DNA of 64,000 nt from Candidatus Uhrbacteria bacterium CG10_big_fil_rev_8_21_14_0_10_48_11 (GCA_002793855.1 PFET01000001.1:19520-83519), one strand, 5' to 3'. Positions 8,966 through 59,848 are shown, counted from the stretch's first letter. Numbers and translations are program-made. The notes: a model not told the origin generated them from the letters alone.

Positions 8966-9660
8966 TGCATTGATGAAGTTATGCCGGCACTGTCAATTTG
9001 CAGCAGTTTAAGGTCGACTAGCGGCGCCAGTTTTGCCAGCTCGGGGTTATAGGTTGCGTAGTACAGTTCAACCAAAGACTGCGTGTCCAAAAGTGCGATT
9101 TCCAGACTGAGCGAATTAAGACCGCTCGCGACATGATCGGCGCGCTGCATCAGTTCATGACGATTTCGACGAAAACGATCTTGGCTCAGGTGAATGAGCG
9201 CGTCAGGATGAAGCACTTCGCGCATGCGTTGGAAAAAAGTTTTCTTCCTATCCGCGCCCGGGTTGTAAGGTACAACGACATAGAATCGTTTGTTCATAAT
9301 TTCACCCAGCTCAACCAGTTCACGAATGAACTGCCGGTACTGCGTCGTTTGAATACGCAATAGCTCATTGGTCTGCTGCTTCTCAATATCTGCCAAGTGA
9401 TCAAGATAGCCGGCTATATTCAGTCGACGAGACTGCACCACAATCTGTAGAGGAAAATCAATAGAGTTCAAAAAACTCATGTAGCCCTGAATAATTGCTT
9501 GCTGCTCGTCATCAGATTTTAGGGCAAAGTTGATAGACGAAACCAGCATGACGGCTCGCAGAGTCCCATCTTTCAACACAGCAACATCCTCTCGGATTTC
9601 TGAAATTTCCAAGAGGTGCTGGGTACTTATGGTTGTTTTGTTCGCTTTTCTTTTTGCCAC
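8962..9660 (-). CDS. VirB4 N-terminal domain encoded as a separate ORF (split VirB4)
   Basis: IREDVAVLKDGTLRAVMLVSSINFALKSDDEQQ matches the conserved N-terminal VirB4 segment. Its TGA overlaps the ATG of the downstream ATPase ORF (ATGA), and an A8 homopolymer lies immediately after the junction. Confidence 0.6.
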   Translation of the reverse strand: MAKRKANKTTISTQHLLEISEIREDVAVLKDGTLRAVMLVSSINFALKSDDEQQAIIQGYMSFLNSIDFPLQIVVQSRRLNIAGYLDHLADIEKQQTNELLRIQTTQYRQFIRELVELGEIMNKRFYVVVPYNPGADRKKTFFQRMREVLHPDALIHLSQDRFRRNRHELMQRADHVASGLNSLSLEIALLDTQSLVELYYATYNPELAKLAPLVDLKLLQIDSAGITSSMQ

Positions 9661-9669: not shown

Positions 9670-10116
9670 TTAGCTGTTCCCTTTTTCTGCGTTGTCACCA
9701 TGGTAAATACCACCAGTATCAACAACGAGAGAAAGCTCAGCGAGTCGCGAGATAGTTGGTGGAGGGCGGCGAGTGGTAACTTTTGAAACACTTGCATCAT
9801 TAATGATCTCGGGAGCCATTTGATCTTGCTTGCCGTATTCTTTTCTCCACACACGTAATCGCGGACGCTGTAAGGTTTGTATTAAATTTAACAGAAAATA
9901 GTGAAAGGGTCGACCATTGATGCGTACAAAAGCGAGTACGATGCCCGATACTACAAATAAGATGGTCAAAATAATGAATAATGAAGTGTCGGCTAGTCGA
10001 TAGCTTAAAAAGACCAAAAAACCAACAACAAGCATAATCAAAAATTGCCGCACTGCAATTGGGCCCAAAATGTGGGACTCTTCGTCAATAAACTGCGGGA
10101 CGACAAATTGCTGCAT
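9670..10116 (-). CDS. small two-TM membrane protein, VirB3-like by size, topology and context
   Basis: 148 aa with two hydrophobic helices (LIMLVVGFLVFLSY, LFIILTILFVVSGIVLAFV), positioned directly upstream of the VirB4 ORFs. Confidence 0.4.
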   Translation of the reverse strand: MQQFVVPQFIDEESHILGPIAVRQFLIMLVVGFLVFLSYRLADTSLFIILTILFVVSGIVLAFVRINGRPFHYFLLNLIQTLQRPRLRVWRKEYGKQDQMAPEIINDASVSKVTTRRPPPTISRLAELSLVVDTGGIYHGDNAEKGNS

Positions 10117-10117: not shown

Positions 10118-10828
10118 CTATGCCCTTATGGTGCGATTAAAATTTATTAAGGCGAGAAACTCTTCCTTGGTAAATGCCTTTGTCTCTTGTAGCACCGCCT
10201 CAATAGATTTCCCGGTATTCAGAGCGGCGACAATAGTCGTGAGGTGTGCTTGGTACAGTGGGCTCTGCCGCCAAGCACGCAGCGCCGAGGCTGACTGATC
10301 GAAAGATTCTTCACTTAACACCTGAAATTTTTGAGTAAGGCGATCAATCGCTTTTTCAGTAGTTGCGCCAAGATGATGAAATTCGTCTATCGATAAAAAA
10401 CGTAGCTCATCAAGCGGGCCGGATACCACTGGGCGCTGAACATCCACCATATGCCGAACCGCAGGCAAGGTAAACTTACTAGAAACATCCATTATGTTCT
10501 CTGTTATATTTTTTTTGAGCTGTGCGCTTGTTTCCACTTCTGTAGGTACTGACTTTGGAGCGACGGCCTGAGTAAAAGCAAGTGCTCGATCTTTACCGTG
10601 CTCTTGCTCAACTAAACCAGAAGCTGTCTTGTGGTCCTCCAACCGCTGATGAGGGCGATCCTTGCTAACTTGCTCTACTGCTTTTTCTGCTGGTTTATTA
10701 TTTGCCGGTACGTTCTTTTTTGTTTGTACGTATGGCTGCCAAGTATTATCTCGCCAGACTTGCCATTCACCATCTTTTCGACGAACAAGAGTGTCGTTTT
10801 GTAGGCTCATAGCGTTGTATCCATCCAT
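10118..10828 (-). CDS. hypothetical protein (T4SS cluster)
   Basis: Intact 236 aa ORF, hydrophilic, ending in TAG. No motif recognised. Confidence 0.45.
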   Translation of the reverse strand: MDGYNAMSLQNDTLVRRKDGEWQVWRDNTWQPYVQTKKNVPANNKPAEKAVEQVSKDRPHQRLEDHKTASGLVEQEHGKDRALAFTQAVAPKSVPTEVETSAQLKKNITENIMDVSSKFTLPAVRHMVDVQRPVVSGPLDELRFLSIDEFHHLGATTEKAIDRLTQKFQVLSEESFDQSASALRAWRQSPLYQAHLTTIVAALNTGKSIEAVLQETKAFTKEEFLALINFNRTIRA

Positions 10829-12264
10829 TGGTATGACTGCGTAGCTTCATCGAAATAGGCAAGGTAGGGAGTAGCGCTATCTTTTTTTCTAGCAAGTGCA
10901 GTTAATTCTGCTGCGAGGTGGGCGGCTTCGGAAATTTGCATATGCATATGATCCTCAAGCAGCATACGCAGAAAATTACGAAGGTGTTCAGGATAATTTA
11001 AGCCCTCCTGTAATTGTCTCAACATGGTCGCTTTTTCAAGTTTACGATAGCGTGCCGCCAAAAGATTTTTAAACCTTTGATCAGCAAAGATAAAGCTTTC
11101 TAGCTTACCCTGCTCTGCTAATGCATACAATACAGCAGCAACAGGGGCTTGCCGTGACACGTTAAAAGCTGTAAGCAAAGTATCATACAGCTGTTTTGTA
11201 TTGATTTGATTGTTCCGTATTCTTCTTATCTCTTTCCGTACCTCCGCACTTTCAAATAGTGAAGATGTCGCTTTCTCTTCCGCGGCAAGTGCACTCCTCT
11301 CTTTTTGGTGCAACGTACTCTGTTTAAGAACCGTTGAAGTACGTGCGTGTACGTGTTCCGTATCAATCTTATTCTCTTCTTGACCTGCAACCTCACTGCC
11401 TAAGGGAGCTTTACGTAAATCGACCCATTCGTCATTCTCGTCATTTGGCCCACTAGGCGGTTGCTCATCTTCTGGCGTAATTAGTCCAATTTTTTTAAAT
11501 TGGTTAATAAGCCGCTCGACTCGAGGATCAACTTGCTGCACCTGTCCATCCTTAACGGTTACCTCTTTGCCGTCTATGTTTGTGCTAAGTGGTTCCTCCA
11601 GGCCATCCACACTAAACGTGGAACGCTTAAGTCGTTCATATAGATGCAAAAGAAAATGTAATTTTTCTTTTTCTTGCGCAGATATTTTTTTTGTATTGAT
11701 AGAAGAAGATAAATACTCAATTTGCTTAATTGATTCAGCTGGCTGGGCATCCACGTGGCGAACATAGTCACGCAACCAATTCGCAACTGTGGGTAAAACC
11801 TCTTTCTCTTGGATTATCAGTTTATTGCTAGTAATAGTTTCTTGATTCTCCTCAAGAGCATATCTAAGTTTTGCTTTAAACGCGTCTCGTTCGTCATGGG
11901 GATAACGAATAATTAAAATCGCGCGCAGCTGCTCCCACACGTCCAAGTTGGCTGACATGTCCAGAGCAAAAGAAAAATAGGTAGCAAAGAGCCGAATAAT
12001 TTCTTCTTCGGATAACGAACTTAAGGCAAGCCAACTAGCACGTGTAACCAACTCTTTATAGCCATCAATCAATGCGAGAGGCAACAAGTTATTTATCCCT
12101 TTTTCTTCTAGCGCTGGTTTTATATTTTTTATTAACCACTGCGCTTCCTCTACTGCATTAAATTTAAGCACGTCACTAACAAAATGACCCTGCATCTTCC
12201 TGAGTAAGCTTGGATCGTTTAACCAACGGTAGTCAGTATTTACTTGTTTTTTTTCATTAGTCAT
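10807..12264 (-). CDS. hypothetical protein (T4SS cluster)
   Basis: Intact 485 aa ORF with no NTP-binding motif. It overlaps the downstream ORF by 22 nt. Confidence 0.45.
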   Translation of the reverse strand: MTNEKKQVNTDYRWLNDPSLLRKMQGHFVSDVLKFNAVEEAQWLIKNIKPALEEKGINNLLPLALIDGYKELVTRASWLALSSLSEEEIIRLFATYFSFALDMSANLDVWEQLRAILIIRYPHDERDAFKAKLRYALEENQETITSNKLIIQEKEVLPTVANWLRDYVRHVDAQPAESIKQIEYLSSSINTKKISAQEKEKLHFLLHLYERLKRSTFSVDGLEEPLSTNIDGKEVTVKDGQVQQVDPRVERLINQFKKIGLITPEDEQPPSGPNDENDEWVDLRKAPLGSEVAGQEENKIDTEHVHARTSTVLKQSTLHQKERSALAAEEKATSSLFESAEVRKEIRRIRNNQINTKQLYDTLLTAFNVSRQAPVAAVLYALAEQGKLESFIFADQRFKNLLAARYRKLEKATMLRQLQEGLNYPEHLRNFLRMLLEDHMHMQISEAAHLAAELTALARKKDSATPYLAYFDEATQSYQWMDTTL

Positions 12265-12267: not shown

Positions 12268-15200
12268 CTACATTAGAGCGATTGCCTGTGCCTGAAGTCC
12301 TGAGTAGCTTGTTCCAACACCGCGTTTCCTGTAAAACCTCCCCATACGATCAATTGCTTCAGCTAAAGTTTCTCCCGTATCTAGGCTGGCCGTTAACATT
12401 CCTCTCCGTTGCATGTCAAATAGTGCCTCTATATCTTCCGACAGCTTCATAATCAAGCTTGGGTTGACTTCTGCCCTACCCAGACGATAAGCAAAATCAT
12501 CCTGAAACCCAGCAAGAGTTAGTTTACCTGATAAATCAAGGTGGAAGTTACCCCGCGCATCCTCATAACCGTAACCAAGACGGTTATGGTTCTGAATAAA
12601 CTTCCTAGAATCTTGTTTTAGGTTTTCAGTTGCAGCAGCTGCAGCCTGCTCTTCTCTTGTTCGATAGTAGTATCGTCCATTCTTCATACCATACATACGT
12701 GACACGTTGTTATGGTTGTGCGCTTCATTAATGTAGGACATCTCGCTCATCAGTTGCATTGAACCCTGTTTGCCAAAAATTTTCTCTAGCCGATCCTTGC
12801 GGAATTTTTCAGCACCCTCAGGACCACTCGGAAGACCGTTGTCTTTATAAATTTCGTTATCATTATAATCTTCCGCCGCTTTTTTCATGAAGGTACTCAC
12901 TTGAAGCATGTTGCCCTCTTGAATGGCACGCTCCAGAAGGTCGCCCAACTCTTCCCACTCCATAGATTCTCTTGGTAGCTTAGATAGTTCTTGCTGCTCA
13001 AGTGCCCGATATACACGGTCGGCATAAAATGTCTGGGGAACGGGTTCGCTTCTTGCAAGATTCTTATCAGAAAATCTTTTTGCTTGCGCTTTTAGCTGTT
13101 TCCTAATCTTTTCAATATCTTCCTCACTATTATCTTGTTGCGCGTAACCTTTTAGTTCGGCTATTCTAAATCTAGCCTCTTTAATTGCATTTTTATTAAG
13201 GTCTCTGTTTGCATCAATTTCTTTCTGCTCCGCCGGCAACTCCTTAGTAGCAATTATTTTCTCTTTCTTTTTTTGTTCTTCCAAATTATTTAAAAGTGAG
13301 CGCTTTAGGCTTTTCAGTTTGCTGGTTTCGTCGGGATCTCCTGCCGCTTCCTCGATGCGCTTATCGACAGCAACGAGCTTGCGTAACAAATCTTCAATGC
13401 GGGCATCGACTTGTTTCTTTTGATCCTCTGTATAACCACCACGCTGTAAATAGGTGAGTTCTTCTTCTTTTTTGGTCTGTTCTTTTTTGTACTCCTCCTT
13501 TGCTAAAGCTTTCAATTTTTCTTTCTCTTCTAGAGTTTCTTTTCCTGTTTCCCCGTAACCCATTGCTTTCATCTGCTCCGCAACCAAATCTTGAAACACT
13601 GGACTATTGCTAACCAAACTATGCCCTTTTTCTTTAGCGATAGACTCAATAAAGCTTTCAGTCTGCTTCTTGTAATCTTCACGCTCGGGACCACTTATGT
13701 TAGCAACTTTTGCTGGTATTAAAATGCCTCTTTCTGCCATTTGGTCCATTACACTTACCGTCCTCCCAGTCTTATCTCCCTTTGCATCACGCTCCTCTTC
13801 GTAAAGAACAGACTTTAACTCGTCTTGCGTCAAATCGTGCCTTTCGGCAACTTCAGCCAGAGAATGCGTCAATTCATTTTCGATAGTCTTACGACGTGTA
13901 CCGAGTTTGGCGCGGCGCTCCTTGGTAGCTTCTTTAACTTCTTTCTCTTCCATGCCACCCGCACGCATACGTGCTTCAAGAGCGCCAAGTCTATTCGCTC
14001 GCTTCTCAAGTGCCTGCGTTGCCTTAGTAATGGCTTGTTCTTCTTTTGCTATTGCTTGCTGAATCTCGTCCTCATCTTTACCTTCCTTCTTCATCTCTAC
14101 CTTCTTCGCCTGCAAACGTTCAACCCGTTCATTGAGTGTGCTGCGATCTTCGGTGAGGCTCGCTCGTTGATCCTGTGTCAAACTCTGAATGATTTCCTCT
14201 TCGGTGCCACCGCCCAGCAAATCAGCTTCAATGGCTGCAATATCTTTTTCTTCCTCGGTAGCATTTTTCATGTCCTCCTGATATGTCTCCATCGCCGGTA
14301 AAACCTCTGGAAGCGCTGCTTGGACGCCCTTAATTTTTCCCTCAGTAAGTTTTTCTGTAGCCGCTCTAGCCGCAAACACGCGGGCTTCTGCTATAAGTTC
14401 TGGTTCACTCCTTATGGCCTCTGCCTCTTTTACTAGCTCCATCGAACGAATTTTGTCTTCCTCCCCTTCTTTGTATGCTTCTTCACTGTATCGTCCTGGA
14501 TCCCGCAGAGTTCTTCCAAAGCGTTGCCTACCAACTTTACCTTTCATGAAAATTTGCAGGAAATCCTCAGTTGCTCCTAATGCCAGTAGCGCCATACCCA
14601 GTCTTCCGCTTTTCGCTTCCATATACTCTTTATAGTTTGCTGTTGCTTTCCGTTGCCCGATAACCTCGTTCTCTCCCCGTCTTCTTGCAAAATACCCTTT
14701 GGTACCACGAATAAGCCGGCGCGGATCAAGACCCCAACCTTTATTTGCGTATAACGTTGACTCGGCAAAAGAGGCTAGGTCTCCAAGTGCATTGAATGGA
14801 GCAAACGCTGTTTTGACACCGGCGCTCGATAGTTTGCCATAGACGGCACCTGCAATTTTGCCAACTGCGCCGCCGGTTTCCATGGCAAAATACAGCGACA
14901 CCATCAGCATAGCGATTGCCATAATAAAACCAGTTAGGTTTGACTGTGCACCCGCCTCTGTTATACCGATATCGGGGAGTAACGGAGACGTTGGCACTCC
15001 ATCAGCAGTCTCGTCAACACTTACATTCTGAACAAAGCCCTTATCCGTAGAAAGCAAGCTTGGCAGCGTCGCAAGTGACAACCATAGAAAAAAGGCCATC
15101 AACGGGCCAACAATGACATACTTTGAAAACATATCCCACCACTGACTGGCATACTTTTGGCCGATAGGTAAAACAGAAAGTACATAAACCATTGGTGAAA

Positions 15201-16014
15201 AAATAATAAGTAGCCACAAAAAAACGATTCGTACGGCTAGGATGGCCGCAAAGGCGCCTACTACAACTATCGCAACAATGAGATAGACAAGCGCTAGCAA
15301 GTAACCACCCGCTATCGTCCATCCGGCGATCTGCACACCTTCAGTGATACCTGCATCGGAATTAATGCTTAGAATGGATTGTAATTTTAGTGCGCTGGCA
15401 AAATTGCCTGCACCTGCTAACTGATATGCGTTTGCAAACGTCAACATCACAATCTGGGCAAAATCAATGAACAACCCAGCGATAGTTTTGCTGAAATTCA
15501 CAAGGAGGGCCATCAGTAAAACTTTTGGCAGCAGACGTTTTAACTGATACTGTTCGAGGCCAAGAATCGTACCAAAAGAAATCAACAACAAAATCAAAAC
15601 GAAAAACATGTTACCGATATCCCGTACAACGCTCCAGCCCATGCCGACCGCCGGTGATTCGATAAAACCATTATAGGTACCAAGGGTTGTTATGGTCAGT
15701 CCTACCAAAAAGCTTAAAATTTTTCCAAGCAGCGATATAATAATGGCTGCAAGGGCAGAAATAATGAACGGCAACCAGCAAGTCGGATCAAGCCAGCCGC
15801 AGCTTGCTTTCACTTTTTGAGTGCCTGGATCAATAGTGGTAGGTGTTACGGTCGTAATGGTAGCGCTGTCATTCCCCGCAAAAACGGTAGGTGCAAAAAA
15901 TTGAGGCGGCACCGCTTGCTGCAATGTTGGAACTGGTATGCTGGTGACAACAGCAAGCGTAACGAAACCAATAAGTATTTTTTTTATAGAGATGCTATGG
16001 AGCAACATACCCAC
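12268..16014 (-). CDS. VirB6/TrbL-like polytopic membrane protein with a long C-terminal E/K-rich coiled-coil extension
   Basis: The N-terminal ~560 aa contain at least eight hydrophobic helices. They are followed by ~700 aa of charged heptad-like sequence (KEEEL, KKEGKDEDE and similar). It sits between the VirB4/VirB3-like genes and the giant surface protein. Confidence 0.6.
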   Translation of the reverse strand: MGMLLHSISIKKILIGFVTLAVVTSIPVPTLQQAVPPQFFAPTVFAGNDSATITTVTPTTIDPGTQKVKASCGWLDPTCWLPFIISALAAIIISLLGKILSFLVGLTITTLGTYNGFIESPAVGMGWSVVRDIGNMFFVLILLLISFGTILGLEQYQLKRLLPKVLLMALLVNFSKTIAGLFIDFAQIVMLTFANAYQLAGAGNFASALKLQSILSINSDAGITEGVQIAGWTIAGGYLLALVYLIVAIVVVGAFAAILAVRIVFLWLLIIFSPMVYVLSVLPIGQKYASQWWDMFSKYVIVGPLMAFFLWLSLATLPSLLSTDKGFVQNVSVDETADGVPTSPLLPDIGITEAGAQSNLTGFIMAIAMLMVSLYFAMETGGAVGKIAGAVYGKLSSAGVKTAFAPFNALGDLASFAESTLYANKGWGLDPRRLIRGTKGYFARRRGENEVIGQRKATANYKEYMEAKSGRLGMALLALGATEDFLQIFMKGKVGRQRFGRTLRDPGRYSEEAYKEGEEDKIRSMELVKEAEAIRSEPELIAEARVFAARAATEKLTEGKIKGVQAALPEVLPAMETYQEDMKNATEEEKDIAAIEADLLGGGTEEEIIQSLTQDQRASLTEDRSTLNERVERLQAKKVEMKKEGKDEDEIQQAIAKEEQAITKATQALEKRANRLGALEARMRAGGMEEKEVKEATKERRAKLGTRRKTIENELTHSLAEVAERHDLTQDELKSVLYEEERDAKGDKTGRTVSVMDQMAERGILIPAKVANISGPEREDYKKQTESFIESIAKEKGHSLVSNSPVFQDLVAEQMKAMGYGETGKETLEEKEKLKALAKEEYKKEQTKKEEELTYLQRGGYTEDQKKQVDARIEDLLRKLVAVDKRIEEAAGDPDETSKLKSLKRSLLNNLEEQKKKEKIIATKELPAEQKEIDANRDLNKNAIKEARFRIAELKGYAQQDNSEEDIEKIRKQLKAQAKRFSDKNLARSEPVPQTFYADRVYRALEQQELSKLPRESMEWEELGDLLERAIQEGNMLQVSTFMKKAAEDYNDNEIYKDNGLPSGPEGAEKFRKDRLEKIFGKQGSMQLMSEMSYINEAHNHNNVSRMYGMKNGRYYYRTREEQAAAAATENLKQDSRKFIQNHNRLGYGYEDARGNFHLDLSGKLTLAGFQDDFAYRLGRAEVNPSLIMKLSEDIEALFDMQRRGMLTASLDTGETLAEAIDRMGRFYRKRGVGTSYSGLQAQAIALM

Positions 16015-16398
16015 TCAGCTTTTAAGGAGACTTAAGGAGGTATTGATAAAGTCCGATCCTACAGCTGTCGCGACAATAATTACCAATAAAAGAAGCAAAA
16101 ATGGCCAACCAATGGTACTCATAAATGCGGTGACACCTGCTACAATTTCAAGTAATAAAGAAACAACAATCCGTTTCCTGAATTTTTTTTTAATCTGCTC
16201 TTCTACTCCAGAGGTCGCTTTCTTCATACCCTTTCTTGCTCCCTGACCTTTGTCTATGTCTTGTTTGTGATTAGACTCTTGCATTCTGGCGCTTTGCTTG
16301 CTCATACGAAAACGCGCCGCTGACGCTTCTTGTTTGCGGACTTCCTCTTGCTTGCGCGAGAATAAAAGGTTGTCAACGTTTTGTGAAAGCTGTGCCAT
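16015..16398 (-). CDS. small basic protein with a C-terminal ~35 aa hydrophobic hairpin (possible pilin/VirB2-like subunit)
   Basis: 127 aa with a Lys/Gln-rich N-terminus and a C-terminal IVVSLLLEIVAGVTAFMSTIGWPFLLLLLVIIVATAV segment. Confidence 0.35.
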   Translation of the reverse strand: MAQLSQNVDNLLFSRKQEEVRKQEASAARFRMSKQSARMQESNHKQDIDKGQGARKGMKKATSGVEEQIKKKFRKRIVVSLLLEIVAGVTAFMSTIGWPFLLLLLVIIVATAVGSDFINTSLSLLKS

Positions 16399-16404: not shown

Positions 16405-19400
16405 CTACTGACTAATCGTTATAGCGTCACCGGAAGACTGCCAAGCGGCTGCGTGACTCGCGCTGCAGTCTCCCCTGCCGTCAGTATTTAACTCGTTGTA
16501 GCCAGTTTGCCCAAAGAGAGGATTGCTGTTACCGGTTGACGCGTAAGCGCCATTGCACCATCCCCAGTTATCCAAAATTTGTACGCGTGGTGTCACTTGA
16601 TAGATACCATTCACTATTGTCGTGGTCTTGGCACAGCTTCCCTCTTTGACGCAGCGAGCCACATCATCGTACGAATAACTATGCACGAGCGAGATGGGGT
16701 TTTGGTCCGAAGGGTGGCTCGCAAACTTTAGACCGGTTTGCACCGTTCGTGACCCGTCTCCCCAATCAACAATGTAGCGCACAATTGGTTCCTGTTCAGG
16801 ATTGGCAATGGCCGTAAAACTGAGGGTTACTGACCCCACTTTTGTAATGGTATTGGCCGCTCCTGAAAGTTCTACAACTGGGATAGCCGGTACAACCCCG
16901 CAAATCTCAGATCCAACACGAACATTCAGCGTTGGACCTGAACCACATTGTTCCGTTGGTACTATTAATTCTTTACTGCCGGTTTCGACATACCGATACC
17001 CGTCGGGTGTTGACTGCCACTCCCACACACCATAGCTCTGAACAAAAAGCTGTTGCAATACCTTAACTGCCTTAGTTAAACCATCAGCATAGGTCGACTC
17101 TTGAATCTCATTCAGCATGGCACCACTACTCGAACACTGTGAGCTAAATAATGGCTTATAGGTGCCTATTAATAAGCTGTTAATAGGGTGACAAGAATAT
17201 GGACCACCTGCACGCGCCTGACTTGTGCTGGTTGAAGAAGCTGATGGCTCTGCAAAAAGTGGTTGCACGCCGACAAATGTTGTTGAGTCCCAAGCAAGCG
17301 GATCGTCAGCAGGAAATGGCGGAACAACACTACCGAATGGGGGCGAATCTGTTGTAACCTTATATTCATAATTATCCTCTGCAGACGATTCATAACTAGT
17401 GCCTCTGCCCACCTTTATAGATGCTTGACTACCAGGGGTAACCCGAGATGCATAGGCACGGTTCTGCCCTGCTGAACCGACTGTTTGCATGACTGCGTTA
17501 CAGCTAAACGAAGGTCGCGCCCACAAACCGAGCGGCGTAATGTAGTCATCAGAAGACAATGACTCGATTATCAGGTAGCGGAATGGTCCCGGAATCCGAT
17601 TACCATTACTGTCGACTGCCCAGGCAACGTCAGCCCACATCTCCGCCCAACCATTGTTTGCTTGATCAGGCGAAGGACGATTGCCGAGGGATGGCGGACA
17701 AGCGGCCGATTCACACCATTCATTAATATAGTAGAGGCTACTAAGATCCTTGCTGACGTATATTTTGTATTTGTCATCACCGTCACCACCCTTGTTATTT
17801 TCCATCCAAACGCGAATTTCGCACCCGGCATGAATAAGAGGGGTAGCAGAATCTACCGCGTGGTAGTTTGCGTCGCACTTGCCGGGTTTATCAACAAGAC
17901 CACCTACCGCATATCCTTCAGTTGTTGAGTCCGCATTGCGATAAAGATCAAACACTACTTTTTCGGTTTTGTCTATTTTTCCGCCGTTATATTCAGTTTG
18001 TTGGCCATGTTTGTCTATCTTAAAGTGACTGAAAGTATCAGTTGGAACCGCCGGGCTCTTCTTACCACCCGTGTAATCAGGAACAGTCGAAGCACCAACA
18101 GAAGAATGCAATAAGGTTGCCCAGCCATCAACAACATCTAGACACTGATACAAGGGTATCGGACCTTGGTAACCAACATGGTCCTGTTCCGTATCTTCTC
18201 CAATGATGTTGTCGACCGGCCACCACTGCAAACAGTTGCTACTGTTCTGTGGATCGGGTGTTAAACAATACCCCAATTTCCCGCGATGACGGAGGCCGTT
18301 GTCATCATTGTATTGACAAGAGAGTGACGTCTCTTCTGGGTACAGGCGGCAGGACTGTGATGCATAGCTGTAGTCGAGCGTCTCGATGCCATTTTCGTAA
18401 TCTACGTTCGGAAAATCTGGATCTACATGAAGGATGTCACAAGTATTTCCAGCACCACAATCGTCATCGACTTGGCATAACTTTGTTACATTGTTAGAAC
18501 AATAACGGTATTCATTGCGACGATACTCAAGTGCGGGCTGGAGCTTAATATCGTCTACGTACCAATTACCGGAGCTATTTTCCGTACTGCCTCCTTTGGC
18601 AAACCAGCCGAATTGAAGGCGGATATAACGAGTATCCTCATCAGTAGTGAATTTATCCACTTTTGTGGTCCAGTCAAAACCTGCACCTGTATCGAGAAGA
18701 GCTAAGAATTTACAGGTACCGGCGGTATTACAGGGTACGAGATCACCATTTGTTTTGTACTGAAAGACTCTGATGCCAGCGCTCTTACCCGAGAAATGCA
18801 CCGTGTTGACATCAGCAGACAAAATATAATCTGCTTCGCCAGCGACATTAATTGTTCCGCTATAATTAGCGAGATTGGGTGCTAAACTGTCATCAATAAA
18901 CTGCGGAACATCAGGTACCTTATGGTTAGCATTCACTTCTAAAAACGCCCTGCCTTCTCGTGGGTACAGTATGCCAACAGACTGAGCGCTTACCGGATTA
19001 TTGATGACTCTAAAATTCTGTCCATTACCCCAGCCAACCCAACTCACCGCATTACCTTGTGTGCTTGGTATTTCAAAGTTTGCATTCACGAGTAGCGCTA
19101 ACTGGCCAACTTGCTCCATATAACCCGGACTAATGTAACCCTGAAGTAGCCTTGGTGTGCATTTCCCTGAACCACAATCGGCATCAGTAGTGCAACTCGT
19201 TGACGAATTGTTAGAACAGACATTACCCCAATTAAAACCAACGCTCGAATAACCAGAGCGGTCTTTTAATTGATCGACGGTAGAAGCGGCGTACGTAAGG
19301 TCTTTGTCTGGCTCATCAAGAGTCGTACGTATACATTGACCTTTATCATCGAGCTGTTCGCATCCCTCGACAGCAAGACAGATATTTCGCCTTACACTAT

Positions 19401-22400
19401 TGCGTGTTACCGTACGGGCTGTCTTACAAGCGAGCCAACTACCACACTCTCGGCTCGGTTGTACCTTGACCAGCAAATTAGAATCGCGCTGAAACTGACA
19501 ATCGCTATCAGCGGTACATGAAAGGCCAACCGTACCTCGACAAATGCCAGAAGTTCCCGTGGCTTGATCGGCACCAACGCAAGAATATTCTGTTCTAGTC
19601 GTACCATTAGGAGTCTTTGTATCCCCTAACGGGCTCATATCAGCGTCGTAGGTATTGACGATAGGCGACTTGTAACTCGTTTGGAAACTAGCAAGGACGC
19701 AGTTGGCATTATTGACCGTACCGGCACAACTTGCAGTATCAAGCTGATCCACAAGTTCGTAATGAATACTGGCCTCGCGAAGCGACACATTTCTTGTCTT
19801 TACTGCGCCAGTTGCAAATTCACCGCTCACGTTAGATGGCAATAAATCATGAGCTTGTCCGACGCGGACGCTACAATTTTCTACGTCATCAGTATTTTTT
19901 ACGTAGAAGCTTACACTAAACCGATCGAACGAATCTTTCTTTGTAGGTTCAATAAAAGTATACGGCGACCCTTGAATGGATAGTGACGAACCAGGACACT
20001 GGATACCGAGATAAGCATTTGCGGCAAGCGAACCGCTGACAGCTTCCGCTTCTGCTGAAAGTACATAAAGCGTACGCTTGCGCAAAGTTACGTTTGACTG
20101 TTCAAACCCGCCACTGCTAATAGTTAAGGTATTCAGGTTTTGGTTGTAATGATAGGTTGTTGACGGTGAAGCAATCGACGTCCATGATCTTGGTGTTGTG
20201 CCATCAGAAGCAATAAACGAACCATTAATCAGTAGATCCCGAGTACCGTCTGAGCGAGGGTCAACTATTTCTTTGCAACTATTCTGCTGCACGGGGCAAG
20301 TACCAACGTAGCCAGCTATTGGCTCCTGGGCGGTCGAACCAGCAATTTGTACACGAGGTACGGTTGTATTGGTAATAGTACGATTACAGTCAGGACTTGT
20401 CGCGGATGAATCTTTCTTATACCAACCGGAAACTGGACGGTCGGTGTGGTATTCACAGGTTTGATCTCCCGGATCTCTAAAGTAGTAAACACTTCCGGCG
20501 GCATCCTTAAAGGCAGAACACTGCAACTGATCAAGCTTGCAGAGAATAACCCCATAATCATCGGGATTATTTTTAAGGTAAACACTTGACCACGGTGTTG
20601 CGCTATCGCCAAGAGCATCACGAAGAATACGCTGAGCATCACTCGCCGCTAATGTACCTGCGTCAAACTTTGCAACCAGCGAATTATAACCGGCAGCCAA
20701 AAGCTTGCTTCGCAAATCAGGCAAACACGATCCCCCTGCTGCGCACTTCAATGTCTCTAGTGCAAGTGCAGTGTTGGCTTTGATTGACCGGTCAACTTTA
20801 CCCAACGCCTGACAACCCTGCGCTTCTGTCTTGCAAGTTTTTGTCGGATCGTTAACAAGGTAGTCAACCGAATCGGCCGGTACGGTAATAAGGCTATTGT
20901 CTTCAGCGTCATTAAATGACCTCGCAAAAGGCGCGTCACCTCCAACCGTAGTGTTCTGCGTGTCGATGACCGCTTCACAGCCAACAACCTTAGCGTGACA
21001 GGCGGCGCCAAACTGCCAAACGTCTTTGCTTGAGCCGTCACTTACCTGATACTGCTGACAACCAAGGAACGGCTGACGAGCGGCATCGTTAGAGTAACAG
21101 GAAAGCGGTGTACGCCAACTATTCTTGACGAGATAATGAGTGTCGGTAGTTGTTTTGAGCTCTATGTTGTCAATAAATACCTTGCCGGTACCGGATGGCG
21201 TTATTGCTAATGTCGTCACCGCATCGCTAGCACTGACAGCAATACTCACTGGATCACTTTTGATTTGTCGCCATTCACTAGTTAACAACGCATCCGTTAC
21301 CAAGGTACCATTGGTTACCCCGTTACCACTGATGGCGGCGCTGATCGCCGCTGTTGCCGTACCGGTTTGTGTACGTGCCCAGAAAGTAACGACATAAGTT
21401 GCCGGGGCAATTGTACCGGAGGTACCACTGGTGCTGCTACCAGCATTAACGGTAACCGCTTTCTCGGCAACCGCCTCGGTAATCTCGTACGAGTGTCCGC
21501 CAACAACACTAGAAACAGCGCTCAACTGTCCGCCAGACCACTCTGCAGTACCTTTCTCGAACGTATCATTCAATACTGTTCGGTAGCTAGCCGACGTTCC
21601 TCCGCGATACTCACGACAACCAGCAACCGCAGCGCTACACTGTCTACCACCATTTGGTACGGCCTGATAAATACATACTTGAATGCTGGTATTCCACCAA
21701 CCGTTCGAATTAGCACAGTCTTGTTGGTTAGAATCTGTCTTTCGCAACGGATGGCAAGAATCGGTAACGCTCACCGTTTTTGAAAGCAACCGGTAAGAGA
21801 TTTGACCTGTTTCGTTATAGAACTGTCGACAATCGGGGTTTGACTGATAAGTATTCTCGTTACAGGTTCGCCACGCTGTATCGCCTGCGTTACTGGTATC
21901 GCTGCATGAAGCGCTTATCCCATCGCTACTCCAATTGATGTGCGTGCAGGGAGCCGCCAAGTCGTTACCGGTGCTGCCTGCAGTCGTGCTGAATCCGGAA
22001 GGATTCGTCGCCTCTGTTTTCTTCAGTTGGAATACGCGCAACTGGAAGCCAGTTTCGTCAGACCCTTCCCATGTGTAGAACGTACCACTGTCAGTTCCTC
22101 CTGGCTTTTGGCAAAACTGTACCTGCTGATAGTACTCACGCGCCTCACCGCCGGATGTTTCCTTGTCGAGATTTGTAAACTCATCACAACCCACCGCAGC
22201 CGCAGGACAACTTTGACCTGTTGCAGGAATGAGATCGACAAACTTTGGTTTCTCGAAAAAGGTTGCCGTCTGAGTATAAGTATCAAAACCTACACACTCT
22301 GTCGGACAACTCTGTCCGCTTACAGCCGTTACTGTTGCTGTCCCGTTTGCAGGGGTGTAGCTCCGGCAACCAACCTCCGCCGGTAAACAATATCGCGCAT

Positions 22401-25140
22401 ACGGCGTACAAGCCGCTTGATCGGCATTTGCATCGGGCGCATCTGTTGCCAAACCGTTTGGACGACAACTGCCAACATCGCCGGTCAAGGATTGATAACT
22501 AGCATCTGTTTTTGAACGATAATCAGGTGCCCGTTTTAAACGGGTCAACGAGGCACCATACGTTGTAAAAGTTGTTGGTGTTTGCCCGACGGTCAGCTCA
22601 ACAGCATCAAAGTCAACACCGGCAGATAACTGTAAGGTAAGGTTGAGACTGTCGGGTAAGGTTGTATCGTTCGCCGCAAAAGTCTTCGTTACTGAGTAGC
22701 GCGTCCAAGTATCAATAAGCGGCTGATCCAGACTGGTAAATGAGGGAGAGGCGTCGCTTCCGACCAAGCTGTACGCAATACGTCCATCGCCACTAAGGGA
22801 TTGCTTGGCGTAAAAACTAAAACCAATGGTTTGCCCAGCAAGTGGTCCGGTAAGCACCGCCTTTTGTGTAAGACTTGCGTTGTCCACATTGCTATGCAAG
22901 TAGCGCGTGCCATTAAACGGAGTGTCGGTTCCTATCCCAACCGCTGTACTATCATAGAGCCACCCTTTTGCCGAGCTGTCAGCTTCTGAAACAACCGTCT
23001 CAAAACTGGGGTTACGCAATAGGTTACTCTGTGGAGCAGTTGCTACCTTGTTACTCGTTCTGATAAAGGCACGGCAACCGTCATCTTTTTGGTCACACCC
23101 TTTCACCTGACCATTCAGATACAGCACGTCCGCATCCGCGGTACTCCACTTATTGTTACCAAGATCTTTTGTACTATAGAGTTTGCAACCAACCGAACCG
23201 GCATCGCAGCCGTTGAAATCAACAGTATTTAATAAATAAGAAACAGTAGCGCCAGATTCGGTATTGGAAAGCGTGGTACAACTGGAAAACTGAGGCTGAC
23301 ATTGCGCCTTACCAAAATCCCATACGCGCTTCTCTTCTGTGCAATAGCCATAGAACTGACAGTTGCCATTTGCATCGCGCTGTACGCAGGTTTGTTCATC
23401 TGCGCAGTAGTTTGCATCACGCGTAACCACAACCGCTGGCGGCACATCACCCGGCGAAACATACTGACCATCGCCGTCGATGTCAGTACCCTTCGTTACA
23501 GTTTGCGATATAACTTTTGGACCGGGTCCTTGTAACTTACAAAAGGCATCCGGCGGCACCAACGTCCAATTTGGATCGACAAGGTGGTAGAAAGGGTTTG
23601 GTTTTTCTGTGGTCGGAACCGTATCGTAAGCGGTCACCAACTGACGAAGCGTAATTCGTTCTTGACCAAAATATTGAATGTACCGCGCGGCAAGCTCCCA
23701 TCCAACCGGTACGATACGATACTTTCTCAAGATCAAGATAGATCGGTACGGAACACCGTCAATGTAACTCGGCTCAATTGGCTGTGGGTTCCAACCGACA
23801 AAACCAAAAGGCGCGTCGCCGTTGATGAGTCCTTGGTCAATCGCCTCTTTAACGGTTAGCCGTTGAGAAATTGCAGTCCGGAAATTGTCATTAATGACAC
23901 AATCTGTCGGTCCTGGGTTGGTATCATTGTCGCAACTAACCAGTTTCGAAAGAATATCGTACCGACCGGGGGTGCTAAAATTCGGTCGAATGTCTTGCGC
24001 TAATCGAGCGCGCGCACCTAATACTCCTTCACCTTGTGCCTGCGCCTCGTAATTACTTAGATTGGCATTACTGTGCCCACCACTACTGCCACCGGTGAAG
24101 CCTTGGGACAGCAAATTTCTAAGCAGTCCGCCGGCAAGCGCCTTAGTAAAGGTATCAACGGCATCAGCAATAACATTGCCAGTAAACGATAGCTCCCCTT
24201 GCTGTGTTGTGCCAAAAACTTCTTGCCATACCACGCGTACCGCTGTACCAGGCAACGTGATGATATCGCTTGTCCCCTTGGTAACATTTGAAAATCCGCC
24301 ATTCGTTAGTCGGTCTAGCATTGCGTTCTGTTTCGCTTCCGCTTTTCGCGACAATAAATTTGTTTGTAAGGTTAGCGCAACGCTAAGATCACTCTCTCCT
24401 GGATTAAATGACTCGCTAAAAGTAGGAAGGAAACTCTTGCTGGTAATAAACTGCTCCCAATTATTTTTTAGCGTACTAAAGGTACACTTTGGACGTGATT
24501 GAAAAGTATCGGTAAGTCCCAAATTAATGGCAATTTGAATAGAGGCACTGGGCGCACATAAATTAAGACCTTCCAGAATGCCTCCTGATCCGGCAAGGCC
24601 TGTCGTACCCCCTTGCCACGTACAACCCCCAGCGGGCACATTTGAACCTTGCACACAGGCTTCCAAAGTGTTGACCCCAGGTCGAGATACGAGTGCGCCA
24701 TTACCATTTCGACATTCACAGGTACCCCCTTGTCCGCTGATCATTCCGTCCAAAAAAACACCGGCGGCTTGATCAATGCTATTGGCAAGATATGCTCCCC
24801 ATCCTTCGGTCACAAAAAGGGGCTTTTGCCCGTGACCGCCGCTGGCAATCCATGTTGCGGTATCTTGCGCAATTTGATTGAGTAAAAATTTAACCCCTTG
24901 TCGAAAAGAAAGTGCCGCTGACTCTTTCAAACTTGCGACTAACTTATTCCAACTAAAATCTTCTAAGTGACTTTTTTGATCTTGTATATATGCCTTAATA
25001 TCGTAGGTTGGCACAGAATCAAGAAGCGGTGCTTGTGCTAAGACTTGCTGTATCTGTAAGCCAAAAACAAAAGATAATGCCAACAGCACTGACAAGATAT
25101 ACCGTTTCTTTATTTTTTTTATTTTGGTGTTCTCGCTCAT
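16405..25140 (-). CDS. giant (2911 aa) secreted Cys-rich multidomain protein; putative glycan-binding surface adhesin
   Basis: N-terminal signal/TM (ILSVLLALSFVFGLQIQQVLA). At least four modules start with the CBM4/9-like signature (LLRNPSFETV.., VLNDTFEKGTAEW.., LLINGSFIASDG.., VNANFEIPSTQGN..). Many C-x(4-6)-GC repeats are present. A C-terminal PKD-like domain is indicated by YIVDWGDGSRTV..HSYSYDD..GIYQVTPRVQILDNWG. Confidence 0.85.
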   Translation of the reverse strand: MSENTKIKKIKKRYILSVLLALSFVFGLQIQQVLAQAPLLDSVPTYDIKAYIQDQKSHLEDFSWNKLVASLKESAALSFRQGVKFLLNQIAQDTATWIASGGHGQKPLFVTEGWGAYLANSIDQAAGVFLDGMISGQGGTCECRNGNGALVSRPGVNTLEACVQGSNVPAGGCTWQGGTTGLAGSGGILEGLNLCAPSASIQIAINLGLTDTFQSRPKCTFSTLKNNWEQFITSKSFLPTFSESFNPGESDLSVALTLQTNLLSRKAEAKQNAMLDRLTNGGFSNVTKGTSDIITLPGTAVRVVWQEVFGTTQQGELSFTGNVIADAVDTFTKALAGGLLRNLLSQGFTGGSSGGHSNANLSNYEAQAQGEGVLGARARLAQDIRPNFSTPGRYDILSKLVSCDNDTNPGPTDCVINDNFRTAISQRLTVKEAIDQGLINGDAPFGFVGWNPQPIEPSYIDGVPYRSILILRKYRIVPVGWELAARYIQYFGQERITLRQLVTAYDTVPTTEKPNPFYHLVDPNWTLVPPDAFCKLQGPGPKVISQTVTKGTDIDGDGQYVSPGDVPPAVVVTRDANYCADEQTCVQRDANGNCQFYGYCTEEKRVWDFGKAQCQPQFSSCTTLSNTESGATVSYLLNTVDFNGCDAGSVGCKLYSTKDLGNNKWSTADADVLYLNGQVKGCDQKDDGCRAFIRTSNKVATAPQSNLLRNPSFETVVSEADSSAKGWLYDSTAVGIGTDTPFNGTRYLHSNVDNASLTQKAVLTGPLAGQTIGFSFYAKQSLSGDGRIAYSLVGSDASPSFTSLDQPLIDTWTRYSVTKTFAANDTTLPDSLNLTLQLSAGVDFDAVELTVGQTPTTFTTYGASLTRLKRAPDYRSKTDASYQSLTGDVGSCRPNGLATDAPDANADQAACTPYARYCLPAEVGCRSYTPANGTATVTAVSGQSCPTECVGFDTYTQTATFFEKPKFVDLIPATGQSCPAAAVGCDEFTNLDKETSGGEAREYYQQVQFCQKPGGTDSGTFYTWEGSDETGFQLRVFQLKKTEATNPSGFSTTAGSTGNDLAAPCTHINWSSDGISASCSDTSNAGDTAWRTCNENTYQSNPDCRQFYNETGQISYRLLSKTVSVTDSCHPLRKTDSNQQDCANSNGWWNTSIQVCIYQAVPNGGRQCSAAVAGCREYRGGTSASYRTVLNDTFEKGTAEWSGGQLSAVSSVVGGHSYEITEAVAEKAVTVNAGSSTSGTSGTIAPATYVVTFWARTQTGTATAAISAAISGNGVTNGTLVTDALLTSEWRQIKSDPVSIAVSASDAVTTLAITPSGTGKVFIDNIELKTTTDTHYLVKNSWRTPLSCYSNDAARQPFLGCQQYQVSDGSSKDVWQFGAACHAKVVGCEAVIDTQNTTVGGDAPFARSFNDAEDNSLITVPADSVDYLVNDPTKTCKTEAQGCQALGKVDRSIKANTALALETLKCAAGGSCLPDLRSKLLAAGYNSLVAKFDAGTLAASDAQRILRDALGDSATPWSSVYLKNNPDDYGVILCKLDQLQCSAFKDAAGSVYYFRDPGDQTCEYHTDRPVSGWYKKDSSATSPDCNRTITNTTVPRVQIAGSTAQEPIAGYVGTCPVQQNSCKEIVDPRSDGTRDLLINGSFIASDGTTPRSWTSIASPSTTYHYNQNLNTLTISSGGFEQSNVTLRKRTLYVLSAEAEAVSGSLAANAYLGIQCPGSSLSIQGSPYTFIEPTKKDSFDRFSVSFYVKNTDDVENCSVRVGQAHDLLPSNVSGEFATGAVKTRNVSLREASIHYELVDQLDTASCAGTVNNANCVLASFQTSYKSPIVNTYDADMSPLGDTKTPNGTTRTEYSCVGADQATGTSGICRGTVGLSCTADSDCQFQRDSNLLVKVQPSRECGSWLACKTARTVTRNSVRRNICLAVEGCEQLDDKGQCIRTTLDEPDKDLTYAASTVDQLKDRSGYSSVGFNWGNVCSNNSSTSCTTDADCGSGKCTPRLLQGYISPGYMEQVGQLALLVNANFEIPSTQGNAVSWVGWGNGQNFRVINNPVSAQSVGILYPREGRAFLEVNANHKVPDVPQFIDDSLAPNLANYSGTINVAGEADYILSADVNTVHFSGKSAGIRVFQYKTNGDLVPCNTAGTCKFLALLDTGAGFDWTTKVDKFTTDEDTRYIRLQFGWFAKGGSTENSSGNWYVDDIKLQPALEYRRNEYRYCSNNVTKLCQVDDDCGAGNTCDILHVDPDFPNVDYENGIETLDYSYASQSCRLYPEETSLSCQYNDDNGLRHRGKLGYCLTPDPQNSSNCLQWWPVDNIIGEDTEQDHVGYQGPIPLYQCLDVVDGWATLLHSSVGASTVPDYTGGKKSPAVPTDTFSHFKIDKHGQQTEYNGGKIDKTEKVVFDLYRNADSTTEGYAVGGLVDKPGKCDANYHAVDSATPLIHAGCEIRVWMENNKGGDGDDKYKIYVSKDLSSLYYINEWCESAACPPSLGNRPSPDQANNGWAEMWADVAWAVDSNGNRIPGPFRYLIIESLSSDDYITPLGLWARPSFSCNAVMQTVGSAGQNRAYASRVTPGSQASIKVGRGTSYESSAEDNYEYKVTTDSPPFGSVVPPFPADDPLAWDSTTFVGVQPLFAEPSASSTSTSQARAGGPYSCHPINSLLIGTYKPLFSSQCSSSGAMLNEIQESTYADGLTKAVKVLQQLFVQSYGVWEWQSTPDGYRYVETGSKELIVPTEQCGSGPTLNVRVGSEICGVVPAIPVVELSGAANTITKVGSVTLSFTAIANPEQEPIVRYIVDWGDGSRTVQTGLKFASHPSDQNPISLVHSYSYDDVARCVKEGSCAKTTTIVNGIYQVTPRVQILDNWGWCNGAYASTGNSNPLFGQTGYNELNTDGRGDCSASHAAAWQSSGDAITISQ

Positions 25141-25146: not shown

Positions 25147-25887
25147 CTATTGCTGGGCGTTAAGCTGATCGAGCGTCTGCTGATAGAGCTTTAACAAGTC
25201 AGCGTCTGAGAGCTTACTAAGCGTTGCTTCGTCGACACCGTTTTGTCGCAAGAGATCTCGAATTTGACTTGGTGAAAGATTTTGTAACTCTTTTGGTGTC
25301 TGGGTAGAGCCTGAAGCTGCCGTCCCACTTTGTGCAGCCAAGGCCTGTTGGTAGCTAGCGACAATTTGCTCATCGGTTAAACCTGCAATTTCTTGTTCGG
25401 ACGCACCTGCCTGACGTAGCGCTGTCCGAAGTTCGTCTGGAGTTGGCGTTGCGGTGGTGCCGGGAATTGATGGTAGCGACGGTGCTGTTGTAGTTTGATT
25501 GGTTCCAGCGGTGTCTGTCGAACCGATAAGCGAGCAATTTTGACCAGTTGGGCAATTAGGATCCGTCCCATTGGCAATTTCTTGCCCGTCACTTATCCCG
25601 TCAGAGTCAGAATCGGCCAAATAGGGGCTGGTGTGATAAATGTTTATTTCGTCACTGTCATAGAGACCGTCTCCGTCAGTGTCTACTTTGGCAACAGCGG
25701 AATTGTCGTTAGAAGCAAAAAGATCAGTCGCTGTAGTTTTGACCGCGTAAGGTCCATAAACTGTCCGGCGGAGACTAATGCCTCCTAAAACAATCGCACT
25801 TGCGCCTATAATAAAAACAGTCGCCAAAAGAAGGCCTCTGGTACGCCCTGAAATTTGACCGGTAGTAGTACTCTTAAAATCAAACAT
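25147..25887 (-). CDS. secreted protein with thrombospondin type-3-like Ca-binding repeats
   Basis: N-terminal TM, then DTDGDGLYDSDE and DSDSDGISDGQEIANGTDPNCP (DxDxDG repeats). A C-terminal tandem of helical motifs (LTDEQIVASYQQAL / LSDADLLKLYQQTL) follows. Confidence 0.6.
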   Translation of the reverse strand: MFDFKSTTTGQISGRTRGLLLATVFIIGASAIVLGGISLRRTVYGPYAVKTTATDLFASNDNSAVAKVDTDGDGLYDSDEINIYHTSPYLADSDSDGISDGQEIANGTDPNCPTGQNCSLIGSTDTAGTNQTTTAPSLPSIPGTTATPTPDELRTALRQAGASEQEIAGLTDEQIVASYQQALAAQSGTAASGSTQTPKELQNLSPSQIRDLLRQNGVDEATLSKLSDADLLKLYQQTLDQLNAQQ

Positions 25888-26030
25888 TGGAGACTAGATA
25901 ATCTCGCGTGTGATAGGTTCTAAAGTTTGTTAATTATAGCAGAGAACGACACGCAAAGTCAAAGAGAATGGCACTAAACCGTTCTCTTTGTATTTTTAAC
26001 CTCTATCGTTCTAAAAATATCTACAAAAAA

Positions 26031-44546: not shown

Positions 44547-46163
<1,617 letters not shown>

Positions 46164-46290
46164 GTGATAATCATCCTTGCTCCCACCCGAAAGTGAAGAG
46201 TAGGTATGATGTAACCCTCTCTACTCAATAAAGCAGAGAGGGGTGGTTACGATATAGACACACCGTCTATATCCAGAACCAAGAAATGTT

Positions 46291-57937: not shown

Positions 57938-58013
57938 TGGGGCGGCCAGAGGGAGTTGAACCCTCGCCGAGAGGTCCACAACCTCTTGTGCTAACCGTTA
58001 CACCATGGCCGCC
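57938..58013 (-). tRNA. tRNA-His (GTG) with encoded G-1
   Basis: The reverse complement is g-gcggcca-tg-gtgt-aacggtta-gcac-a-agagg-ttGTGga-cctct-cggc-gaggg-ttcaact-ccctc-tggccgc-c-cca. The extra 5' G pairs with C73, which is characteristic of tRNA-His. Confidence 0.85.
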
Positions 58014-58078
58014 CCACTAGTGCCTTTAATTGAGCTCATCATACAAGCGAGACTTCTCTCTGTCAAAATATATACCTT

Positions 58079-59802: not shown

Positions 59803-59848
59803 AATAATGATATATTAATTTACTAACTTTTATAAGTATACACTTTTA

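Follow-up and report, generated by a model that had tools for sequence, protein, structure and literature searches.

What a protein of roughly 3000 amino acids (aa) contributes to bacteria that devote nearly 1% of a ~1-Mb genome to it is the question raised by an open reading frame (ORF) of Candidatus Uhrbacteria bacterium CG10_big_fil_rev_8_21_14_0_10_48_11, whose relatives are found in one large clade. The ORF is located in a stretch of 64,000 nucleotides (nt) (GCA_002793855.1, PFET01000001.1:19520-83519), which is referred to in its entirety as the window and from whose first letter all positions are counted. The original prediction described the product, hereafter termed the giant, as a free-standing secreted surface protein composed of carbohydrate-binding module (CBM)-like domains, cysteine-rich repeats and a C-terminal PKD-like domain. 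The ATG-initiated ORF of 2911 aa was confirmed (Table 1), as was, by a heuristic reading of its Sec-type N terminus, the probable secretion of its product; the giant is not free-standing, however, being specified by the second gene of a tightly packed type IV secretion system (T4SS) operon. This T4SS is related to the conjugation machines of single-membrane bacteria, and we regard it as moderately probable that the giant represents its Sec-exported, disulfide-stapled, sugar-binding contact or adhesin arm. The Patescibacteria are ultra-small, account for a substantial fraction of bacterial diversity and seemingly grow while attached to other microbes. In a cultivated relative, the only one that is genetically tractable, epibiotic growth requires the T4SS, whose relaxase and coupling protein are missing (PMC10633639).

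The giant within a T4SS operon

Ten genes on the same strand, extending from position 25887 to 6511, are separated by gaps or joined by overlaps of no more than ~22 nt, the stop codon of gene 1 lying 6 nt from the ATG of the giant. As judged by this gene order and spacing, the giant belongs to an operon which also encodes VirB6-like, PrgI (VirB3-like), TrsD/TraC-like and VirB4 proteins. The VirB6 designation of gene 4 is based on its orthologs, which match TrbL_3 in loci L001 and L163 and TrbL in 3 of 46 cases, and the orthologs of gene 8 match the Pfam TraC-like family. The promoter-like site located upstream of the first gene, which displays 11 of 12 matches and is the best within 20 kb, is no more than suggestive, since such sites are not more numerous in the region than expected by chance.

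The association between the giant and T4SS genes is conserved across species, as assessed in a sample of 82 related loci, in which each count refers to those loci with sufficient flanking sequence. The TSP3-repeat protein specified by gene 1 was located directly upstream of the giant in 69 of 70 loci and is, as its most constant neighbor, a candidate anchor for it; this protein contains bacterial TSP3 (calcium-binding) repeats and one hydrophobic segment (aa 19 to 37). Downstream of the giant, the VirB6-like gene was present in 44 of 48 loci, the gene for the 485-aa protein in 31 of 43 and virB4 in 23 of 41, the last of these counts being limited by the length of the flank. KsgA was encoded upstream in 64 of 67 loci, and the 10 kb upstream encompassed DsbA in 33 and a VirB2-like pilin in 28 of 48 loci.

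Because the genes for KsgA and LeuRS show almost as much synteny as those of the T4SS, conserved order alone is not specific, and the giant might on these grounds be viewed as a general envelope or S-layer-like protein without a working link to the T4SS, its adjacency representing no more than frozen gene order. We consider this highly improbable, given that the giant is positioned inside a tightly packed, same-strand run of T4SS genes that follows the best promoter-like site, and that a short form of the protein retains the same slot in loci whose surroundings differ.

These short forms were encountered when 80 metagenome loci surrounding relatives of VirB4 were fetched and their ORFs searched with hidden Markov models (HMMs) of each module of the giant. 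The 10-kb flank usually stops inside or before the VirB6-like gene, and loci with closer VirB4 relatives end in the C-terminal part of the giant. Where VirB4 shares 53 to 56% identity, the ORF that immediately precedes the VirB6-like gene measures 534 to at least 1784 aa and matches only aa ~60 to 330 of the giant (E values of 1e-9 to 3e-19), a region here designated the N-domain. The N-domain HMM matched in L139, L145, L147, L148, L150, L153 and L156, and the module HMMs detected neither the linkers nor the jelly rolls of the giant in the short-form ORFs of these distant loci. The gene order of L148 comprises the TSP3 protein, a 663-aa N-domain protein, a small ORF, VirB6-like, PrgI, TrsD/TraC-like and VirB4, and that of L163 and L164 comprises TSP3, the N-domain protein, a small ORF, VirB6-like, PrgI, TraC-like and VirB4; in the latter two loci UvrD and type IV pilus genes are located upstream, with KsgA still nearby.

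A homolog search with a single short-form query recovered a separate family (the N-domain alignment as query gave two proteins), and this family aligned with the N-terminal region of the giant over 222 columns (hhalign, 99.6%; E value of 2.4e-24), no profile-profile match being obtained to any other module of the giant. By these matches, the short-form proteins are an unnamed, conserved T4SS-operon family of other Patescibacteria. As the N-domain and the slot are common to both forms, the giant is best described as a conserved T4SS-operon protein that carries a lineage-specific extension of ~2300 aa. A survey of Patescibacteria T4SS (PMC12102498) lists homologs of VirB1, VirB2, VirB3, VirB4, VirB6, VirB8, TrsD and PrgF, does not recognize the N-domain protein as a T4SS component and states that PrgB-like adhesins were not detected; among the sections and terms searched, neither a giant protein nor DsbA is mentioned. 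No description of the giant family was found in the literature searched.

The same survey notes that the T4SS of Patescibacteria are usually without a relaxase or coupling protein near virB4 and are thought to be repurposed (PMC12102498), which would be in keeping with the giant being a cargo that is Sec-exported, folded with its disulfides outside the membrane and which the T4SS subsequently releases or drives across the wall. The signal peptide, the lack of any detected anchor, the many conserved cysteines and the nearby DsbA would all suit such a cargo. Pertussis toxin is handled likewise by the Ptl system, which has no coupling protein. Effectors, however, usually vary in presence and position, whereas the slot of the giant is fixed between the TSP3 and VirB6-like genes in hundreds of species, and the N-domain is retained where the remainder of the protein is absent; such behavior is that of a structural subunit, and a Ptl-like cargo role is thus regarded as unlikely.

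Modular architecture and conservation of the giant family

A protein search of 5.8 billion sequences returned more than 120 relatives of 2400 to 3900 aa, which share 25 to 53% identity with the giant and align end to end except at aa ~2350 to 2550. All giant relatives returned are labeled as Patescibacteria, Parcubacteria, Falkowbacteria or Buchananbacteria, and the databases annotate them as "hypothetical protein" or "carbohydrate binding domain-containing protein." A scan with one genome per species detected the giant family in no fewer than 425 species; the N-terminal region as query yielded 1218 representatives of 50% identity clusters, the best 150 of which are almost all giants or fragments thereof. 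Very large predicted adhesion proteins are also known from the same class, ABY1, namely the exoproteins of Patescibacterium danicum, which are longer than 5000 aa, contain FhaB domains and evolve rapidly, and for which full-length homologs are lacking (PMC11809585). The giant was rejected as a fast-evolving exoprotein of this type, since its family has no FhaB domain and is conserved end to end, in hundreds of species and within a T4SS operon.

The N terminus of the giant is composed of a lysine-rich n-region, a hydrophobic stretch (aa 15 to 33) and an A-x-A motif near aa 35 to 37, and signal-peptide-like N termini were apparent in the first 25 homologs inspected. The processed protein has a computed mass of ~308 kDa and an isoelectric point of 4.8. 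It is predicted to consist of an N-terminal region (aa 40 to 570) and five cysteine-rich linkers that alternate with four jelly-roll modules, followed by a variable region (aa 2341 to 2550), a beta-rich region and a C-terminal beta-sandwich.

Cysteine accounts for 92 residues of the giant (3.16%), compared to 0.60% across another 31 large ORFs in the window. Approximately 53 of these cysteines are conserved, each in at least 89% of 117 aligned members, many being invariant, at an overall identity of roughly 30%, and the total number of cysteines is even in 78% of family members. The cysteine-rich repeats of the original prediction are therefore upheld, and the irregular spacing that it had named as the contrary result was not seen, the spacing being regular and conserved well beyond chance. 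Its "dozens" of C-x(4-6)-G-C motifs were an overestimate: the giant contains eight, compared to 0.76 expected and a maximum of 6 over 500 shuffles, in addition to 11 hairpin-like C-x6-C motifs, mostly of the form ...G-C-x-x-[YF].

The linkers are themselves repeated, linker 1 aligning with linker 2 (hhalign, 85%) and linker 2 with linker 3 (92%, over 164 columns), and jelly-roll modules 1, 2 and 4 are likewise related to one another (hhalign values of 96% for modules 1 and 2, 96% for 1 and 4 and 75% for 2 and 4). The core of the giant is, therefore, an old tandem repeat of a super-module consisting of one linker and one jelly roll. Profile searches of Pfam, NCBIfam and the PDB returned no relative of the linkers and, for the whole protein, no match apart from the CBM signal. 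Pairwise identity is highest in the linkers (0.40 to 0.44, except for linker 4 at 0.34), falls to 0.23 to 0.31 in the jelly rolls and reaches its lowest value, 0.16, in the variable region at aa 2341 to 2550. Variation being greatest in the jelly rolls and C-terminal region and least in the linkers, this distribution fits variable recognition modules mounted on a fixed scaffold.

Two small C-x8-C-x5-C-x4/5-C knots (CSNN...C..D.DCG.G..C) were also observed, at positions 19159 to 19218 (aa 1975 to 1994) and 18439 to 18501 (aa 2214 to 2234); they occur in fewer than 10% of members and resemble lineage-specific insertions at module borders.

An oxidoreductase which may form the disulfides of the giant is encoded within 10 kb upstream of it, where a DsbA-like protein is followed after 2 nt by a VirB2-like pilin whose C-terminal extension holds 12 cysteines (4.6%). 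DsbA is a plausible candidate oxidant for both the giant and the pilin: the giant is predicted to be of an extracytoplasmic type, its conserved cysteines appear to be paired and DsbA is present in the genome, as would be expected of a DsbA substrate.

At the level of the family, the jelly rolls are of the CBM4/22 kind, as indicated by profile comparison, and sugar binding is predicted. Family profiles of modules 1 to 4 matched solved structures in the PDB, namely 4xuo (CBM22; E value of 4e-5), 4xup (CBM22; 2e-11), 2zew (an endoglucanase CBM; 2.3e-4) and 1gui (CBM4; 5.8e-9), respectively, with module 4 also matching 3jxs (4e-8). The CBM of 2zew presumably belongs to family 16. PF02018 (CBM_4_9) is matched individually by 12 of 49 module-4 orthologs and is carried by many full-length homologs. 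The predicted CBM4/9-like modules thus stand for the family but not for the window protein at the Pfam threshold, as the latter scores 21.3 bits as a whole, 14.1 bits for module 1 and 23.6 bits for module 2 (E value of 7e-5) against a gathering cutoff of 25.9 bits, and modules 3 and 4 return no CBM_4_9 match. Similarly, of the four N-x-[SF]-F-E openings that had been claimed, the strict pattern occurs once (aa 710), whereas the relaxed N-x-x-F-E occurs three times (aa 710, 1191 and 2019; 0.19 expected by chance) and the fourth module begins with N-G-S-F-I. The four modules resemble CBM4/9/16/22 in their length (~160 to 200 aa) and in their N-x-x-F-E...W...Y/F...D-x-I pattern; they differ in being joined to no recognizable enzyme and in that each is preceded by a cysteine-rich linker of up to ~300 aa without a known relative.

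The C-terminal motif was located as described, WGDGS at aa 2793 being followed by HSYSY and DNWGW, and AlphaFold2 modeled aa 2250 to 2911 with a mean predicted local distance difference test (pLDDT) score of 61.9, confidently for aa ~2690 to 2911. Foldseek comparison of the C-terminal model to the PDB retrieved the PKD domain of SorCS2 (E value of 9e-3, probability of 0.69, 19% identity) amid CBM22 and CBM32 matches, and comparison to viral models gave generic fiber and lectin matches of low template modeling score, to which no interpretation is attached; the pre-C-terminal region, whose model is partly confident, gave weak matches to CBM22 and CBM32. By profile, the PKD assignment was less well served: Pfam PKD_4 reached 16.3 bits on the C terminus against a cutoff of 27, over the first half of the profile only, PKD and PKD_4 were each weakly matched by 1 of 49 members (at most 2 of 49 together), and a profile of 49 C-terminal domains found no PKD chain in the PDB at E values up to 10. 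The C terminus is, therefore, weakly suggested to be PKD-like by resemblance rather than by membership. The likeness to PKD domains (PF00801, PF18911) lies in the WGDG..HxY..DNWG pattern within a C-terminal beta-sandwich of ~130 to 160 aa, and the difference in a cysteine-containing insertion of variable length in the middle of the domain in the giant family.

The N-terminal region yielded no Pfam match (61 single sequences), no NCBIfam match and no PDB match (two profiles). Its best conserved stretch is the core at aa ~395 to 545, which is specific to the giant family. AlphaFold2 modeling of aa 40 to 700 from a shallow alignment of 28 sequences predicted long helices with a mean pLDDT of 54.8, confident solely at aa ~400 to 530 (pLDDT of 75 to 93), and Foldseek comparison of this poor model to the PDB gave nothing below an E value of 1. 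The invariant N-terminal positions are mostly glycine, alanine, cysteine, tryptophan and arginine.

These residues bear on whether the giant could be a wall-breaching enzyme, in which an N-terminal glycan or peptidoglycan hydrolase, targeted by the CBM-like modules, would take the place of a VirB1-type hydrolase. Modules of CBM4/9/22 typically accompany a glycoside hydrolase, as they do in the PDB matches described above, VirB1 homologs rarely show linkage to virB4 in most classes of Patescibacteria according to the survey (PMC12102498), and the N-terminal region is predicted to be mostly helical, as are lysozyme-like folds. No hydrolase was matched in Pfam, NCBIfam or the PDB by the 61 single sequences and profile, however, and no histidine, serine or lysine is invariant; the conserved acidic residues are limited to D522 (invariant), E482 and D326 (both near-invariant), and within aa 60 to 330, the portion common to the short forms, only G127, C195 and C219 are invariant. 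An enzymatic role is accordingly considered improbable.

Proposed role of the giant in host contact

The giant would be produced together with the VirB6-like, VirB3-like, TrsD-like and VirB4 proteins from a single operon, as gene order and spacing indicate, and exported by Sec via a cleavable signal peptide. Oxidation outside the membrane, probably by the nearby membrane-anchored DsbA, may then yield a rigid scaffold with many disulfides. The N-domain is presumed to retain the protein at the apparatus by contact with the VirB6-like or the TSP3 protein or with the pilus, and the ~2300-aa extension would project outward as four super-modules, the variable region and the terminal beta-sandwich. 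Binding of this extension to glycans of the host envelope could thereby position the secretion channel.

A comparable arrangement is that of the conjugative plasmid pCF10 of Gram-positive bacteria, whose adhesin genes are located just upstream of those for VirB6, VirB3 and VirB4. Its PrgA, PrgB and PrgC proteins are, like the giant, large Sec-exported surface proteins specified by a single-membrane-type T4SS operon and involved in cell-to-cell contact; the giant differs from them in lacking sequence similarity and LPXTG, in being two to three times larger and in being rich in disulfides. An LPXTG-anchored adhesin of the PrgB type was rejected as a candidate identity, the motif being absent from the C terminus of the giant and from 120 of 120 homologs. 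Enlargement of T4SS subunits by target-facing repeat arrays is described for Helicobacter pylori CagY and the VirB6 proteins of Rickettsiales (PMC10706595, PMC7648143). Those subunits are VirB10 and VirB6 homologs of double-membrane systems, whereas here it is the N-domain protein that is enlarged, and by linkers and jelly rolls.

It is also possible, if doubtful, that the N-domain protein is a counterpart of VirB5 which resides on the VirB6-like platform, starts growth of the VirB2-like pilus and is carried to its tip, rendering the giant, in this clade a disulfide-stapled lectin array of ~300 kDa, a pilus-tip adhesin which chooses the host. In the structure of the R388 system, VirB5 reportedly rests on VirB6. 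In common with VirB5, TraC, TrwJ and CagL, the giant is predicted to be Sec-exported, to have a helix-rich N-terminal part (as modeled) and to be encoded near a VirB6-like gene, and VirB2-like pilins accompany its T4SS, which is unusual for its class according to the survey (PMC12102498). A VirB5-like role, if correct, would explain both the presence of pilins in a single-membrane-type T4SS and a DsbA common to pilin and giant. VirB5 proteins, however, measure ~220 aa, compared to 600 to 3800 aa for N-domain proteins, and no similarity to VirB5, TraC or TrbJ was found with Pfam on 61 N-terminal regions or with two profiles against the PDB.

Several points weigh against a sugar-binding contact arm. 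Neither a membrane anchor nor a wall anchor was detected in the giant, hydrophobic segments other than aa 15 to 33 being absent throughout, the C terminus included, such that retention on the cell would depend on an unproven protein-protein contact. The model of the 660-aa N-terminal portion is poor and has no structural match, and the giant's own jelly rolls all fall below the CBM_4_9 cutoff. Conserved gene order, while it supports a functional link, does not prove physical association. The three rivals presented above, namely an envelope protein, a cargo and a hydrolase, are nevertheless each less well supported than the contact arm.

The N-domain and the cysteine-rich linker are two new conserved modules without a Pfam or PDB relative, and the variable lectin-like modules make the giant an obvious candidate for host recognition. 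With respect to what the T4SS of Patescibacteria contacts, the giant offers a host-facing candidate, and these findings provide targets for structural work, labeling in cryo-electron tomography, glycan-binding assays and sequence-based prediction of host range.

Features of the locus and its surroundings

Table 1. Coordinates of the operon, of the modules of the giant and of associated features, given as window positions except for the short forms, which are given as locus positions
Feature	Position	Strand	Description
Promoter-like site	25933..25962	-	TTGACT-18-TATAAT, TG extended; upstream of gene 1
Gene 1, TSP3-repeat protein	25147..25887	-	246 aa, predicted membrane-anchored; Pfam TSP3_bac, 37 bits
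Gene 2, giant	16405..25140	-	2911 aa, ATG start
Predicted Sec-type signal peptide	25027..25140	-	aa 1-38; heuristic reading, not SignalP
N-domain	24151..24963	-	aa ~60-330; motif GGxGQxPxFVT; invariant C195, C219
N-terminal core	23506..23958	-	aa ~395-545; giant-family-specific; motif RKYRIxPVGWExAA
Cys-rich linker 1	23041..23430	-	aa 571-700; 10/10 Cys kept in at least 99% of family
Jelly-roll module 1	22486..23040	-	aa 701-885; CBM4/9/22-like
Cys-rich linker 2	21586..22485	-	aa 886-1185; identity 0.44, among the best conserved parts
Jelly-roll module 2	21115..21585	-	aa 1186-1342; CBM4/9/22-like
Cys-rich linker 3	20251..21114	-	aa 1343-1630
Jelly-roll module 3	19741..20250	-	aa 1631-1800; most divergent
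Cys-rich linker 4	19111..19740	-	aa 1801-2010; lineage-specific small Cys clusters
Jelly-roll module 4	18511..19110	-	aa 2011-2210; CBM4-like
Cys-rich linker 5	18121..18510	-	aa 2211-2340; C2264, C2275, C2292, C2303 near-invariant
Variable and pre-C-terminal beta-rich region	16891..18120	-	aa 2341-2750
C-terminal beta-sandwich	16408..16890	-	aa 2751-2911; WGDG..HxY..DNWG pattern
Gene 3	16015..16398	-	127 aa, two hydrophobic segments; begins 6 nt past stop of giant
Gene 4, VirB6-like polytopic membrane protein	12268..16014	-	1248 aa; 7-8 hydrophobic segments
Gene 5, conserved unknown	10807..12264	-	485 aa; no Pfam match
Gene 6, conserved unknown	10118..10828	-	236 aa
Gene 7, PrgI (VirB3-like)	9670..10116	-	Pfam PrgI, 34.4 bits (cutoff 27)
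Gene 8, TrsD/TraC-like	8962..9660	-	Resembles VirB4 N terminus; partial NCBIfam TrsD, VirB4_plasma
Gene 9, VirB4 ATPase	7091..8965	-	Pfam P-loop_TraG, 100.5 bits
Gene 10	6511..7104	-	197 aa, predicted membrane-anchored
DsbA-like oxidoreductase	34007..34756	-	CPFC, predicted membrane-anchored; Pfam Thioredoxin_4, 103 bits; DSBA, 65 bits
VirB2-like T4SS pilin	33225..34004	-	Pfam T4SS_pilin, 27.5 bits (cutoff 26.6)
Short-form N-domain proteins	L148:4584-6575; L163:9001-10788; L164:9001-10869; L153:1190-5755		~600 aa, up to at least 1784 aa

Among the neighbors of the giant, the TSP3 protein contains one C-x6-C motif (NCPTGQNC) and terminates in repeated helical S-x-x-Q-I/L segments, and the VirB6-like protein, whose orthologs measure ~630 to 1450 aa, carries a C-terminal tail of ~800 aa which is rich in glutamate and lysine and is probably coiled-coil. 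The operon is flanked by genes for RadA (457 to 1953) and RecG (1959 to 4046) and by a double-zinc-ribbon ORF (6092 to 6499), which is possibly ComF-like; a RadA/RecG context is described for T4SS loci of class ABY1 in the survey (PMC12102498), as is the case here.

Elsewhere in the window, positions 58000 to 62000 display a GC content of 0.38, compared to ~0.48 elsewhere, immediately past tRNA-His (57938 to 58012), and may represent an inserted island; the sole ORF scanned there (58918 to 59802) had no Pfam match. No 23S rRNA gene was found within the window. The 16S rRNA gene (44551 to 46169, minus strand) measures 1619 nt, compared to 1533 nt for the model, and may hold an insertion of ~85 nt.

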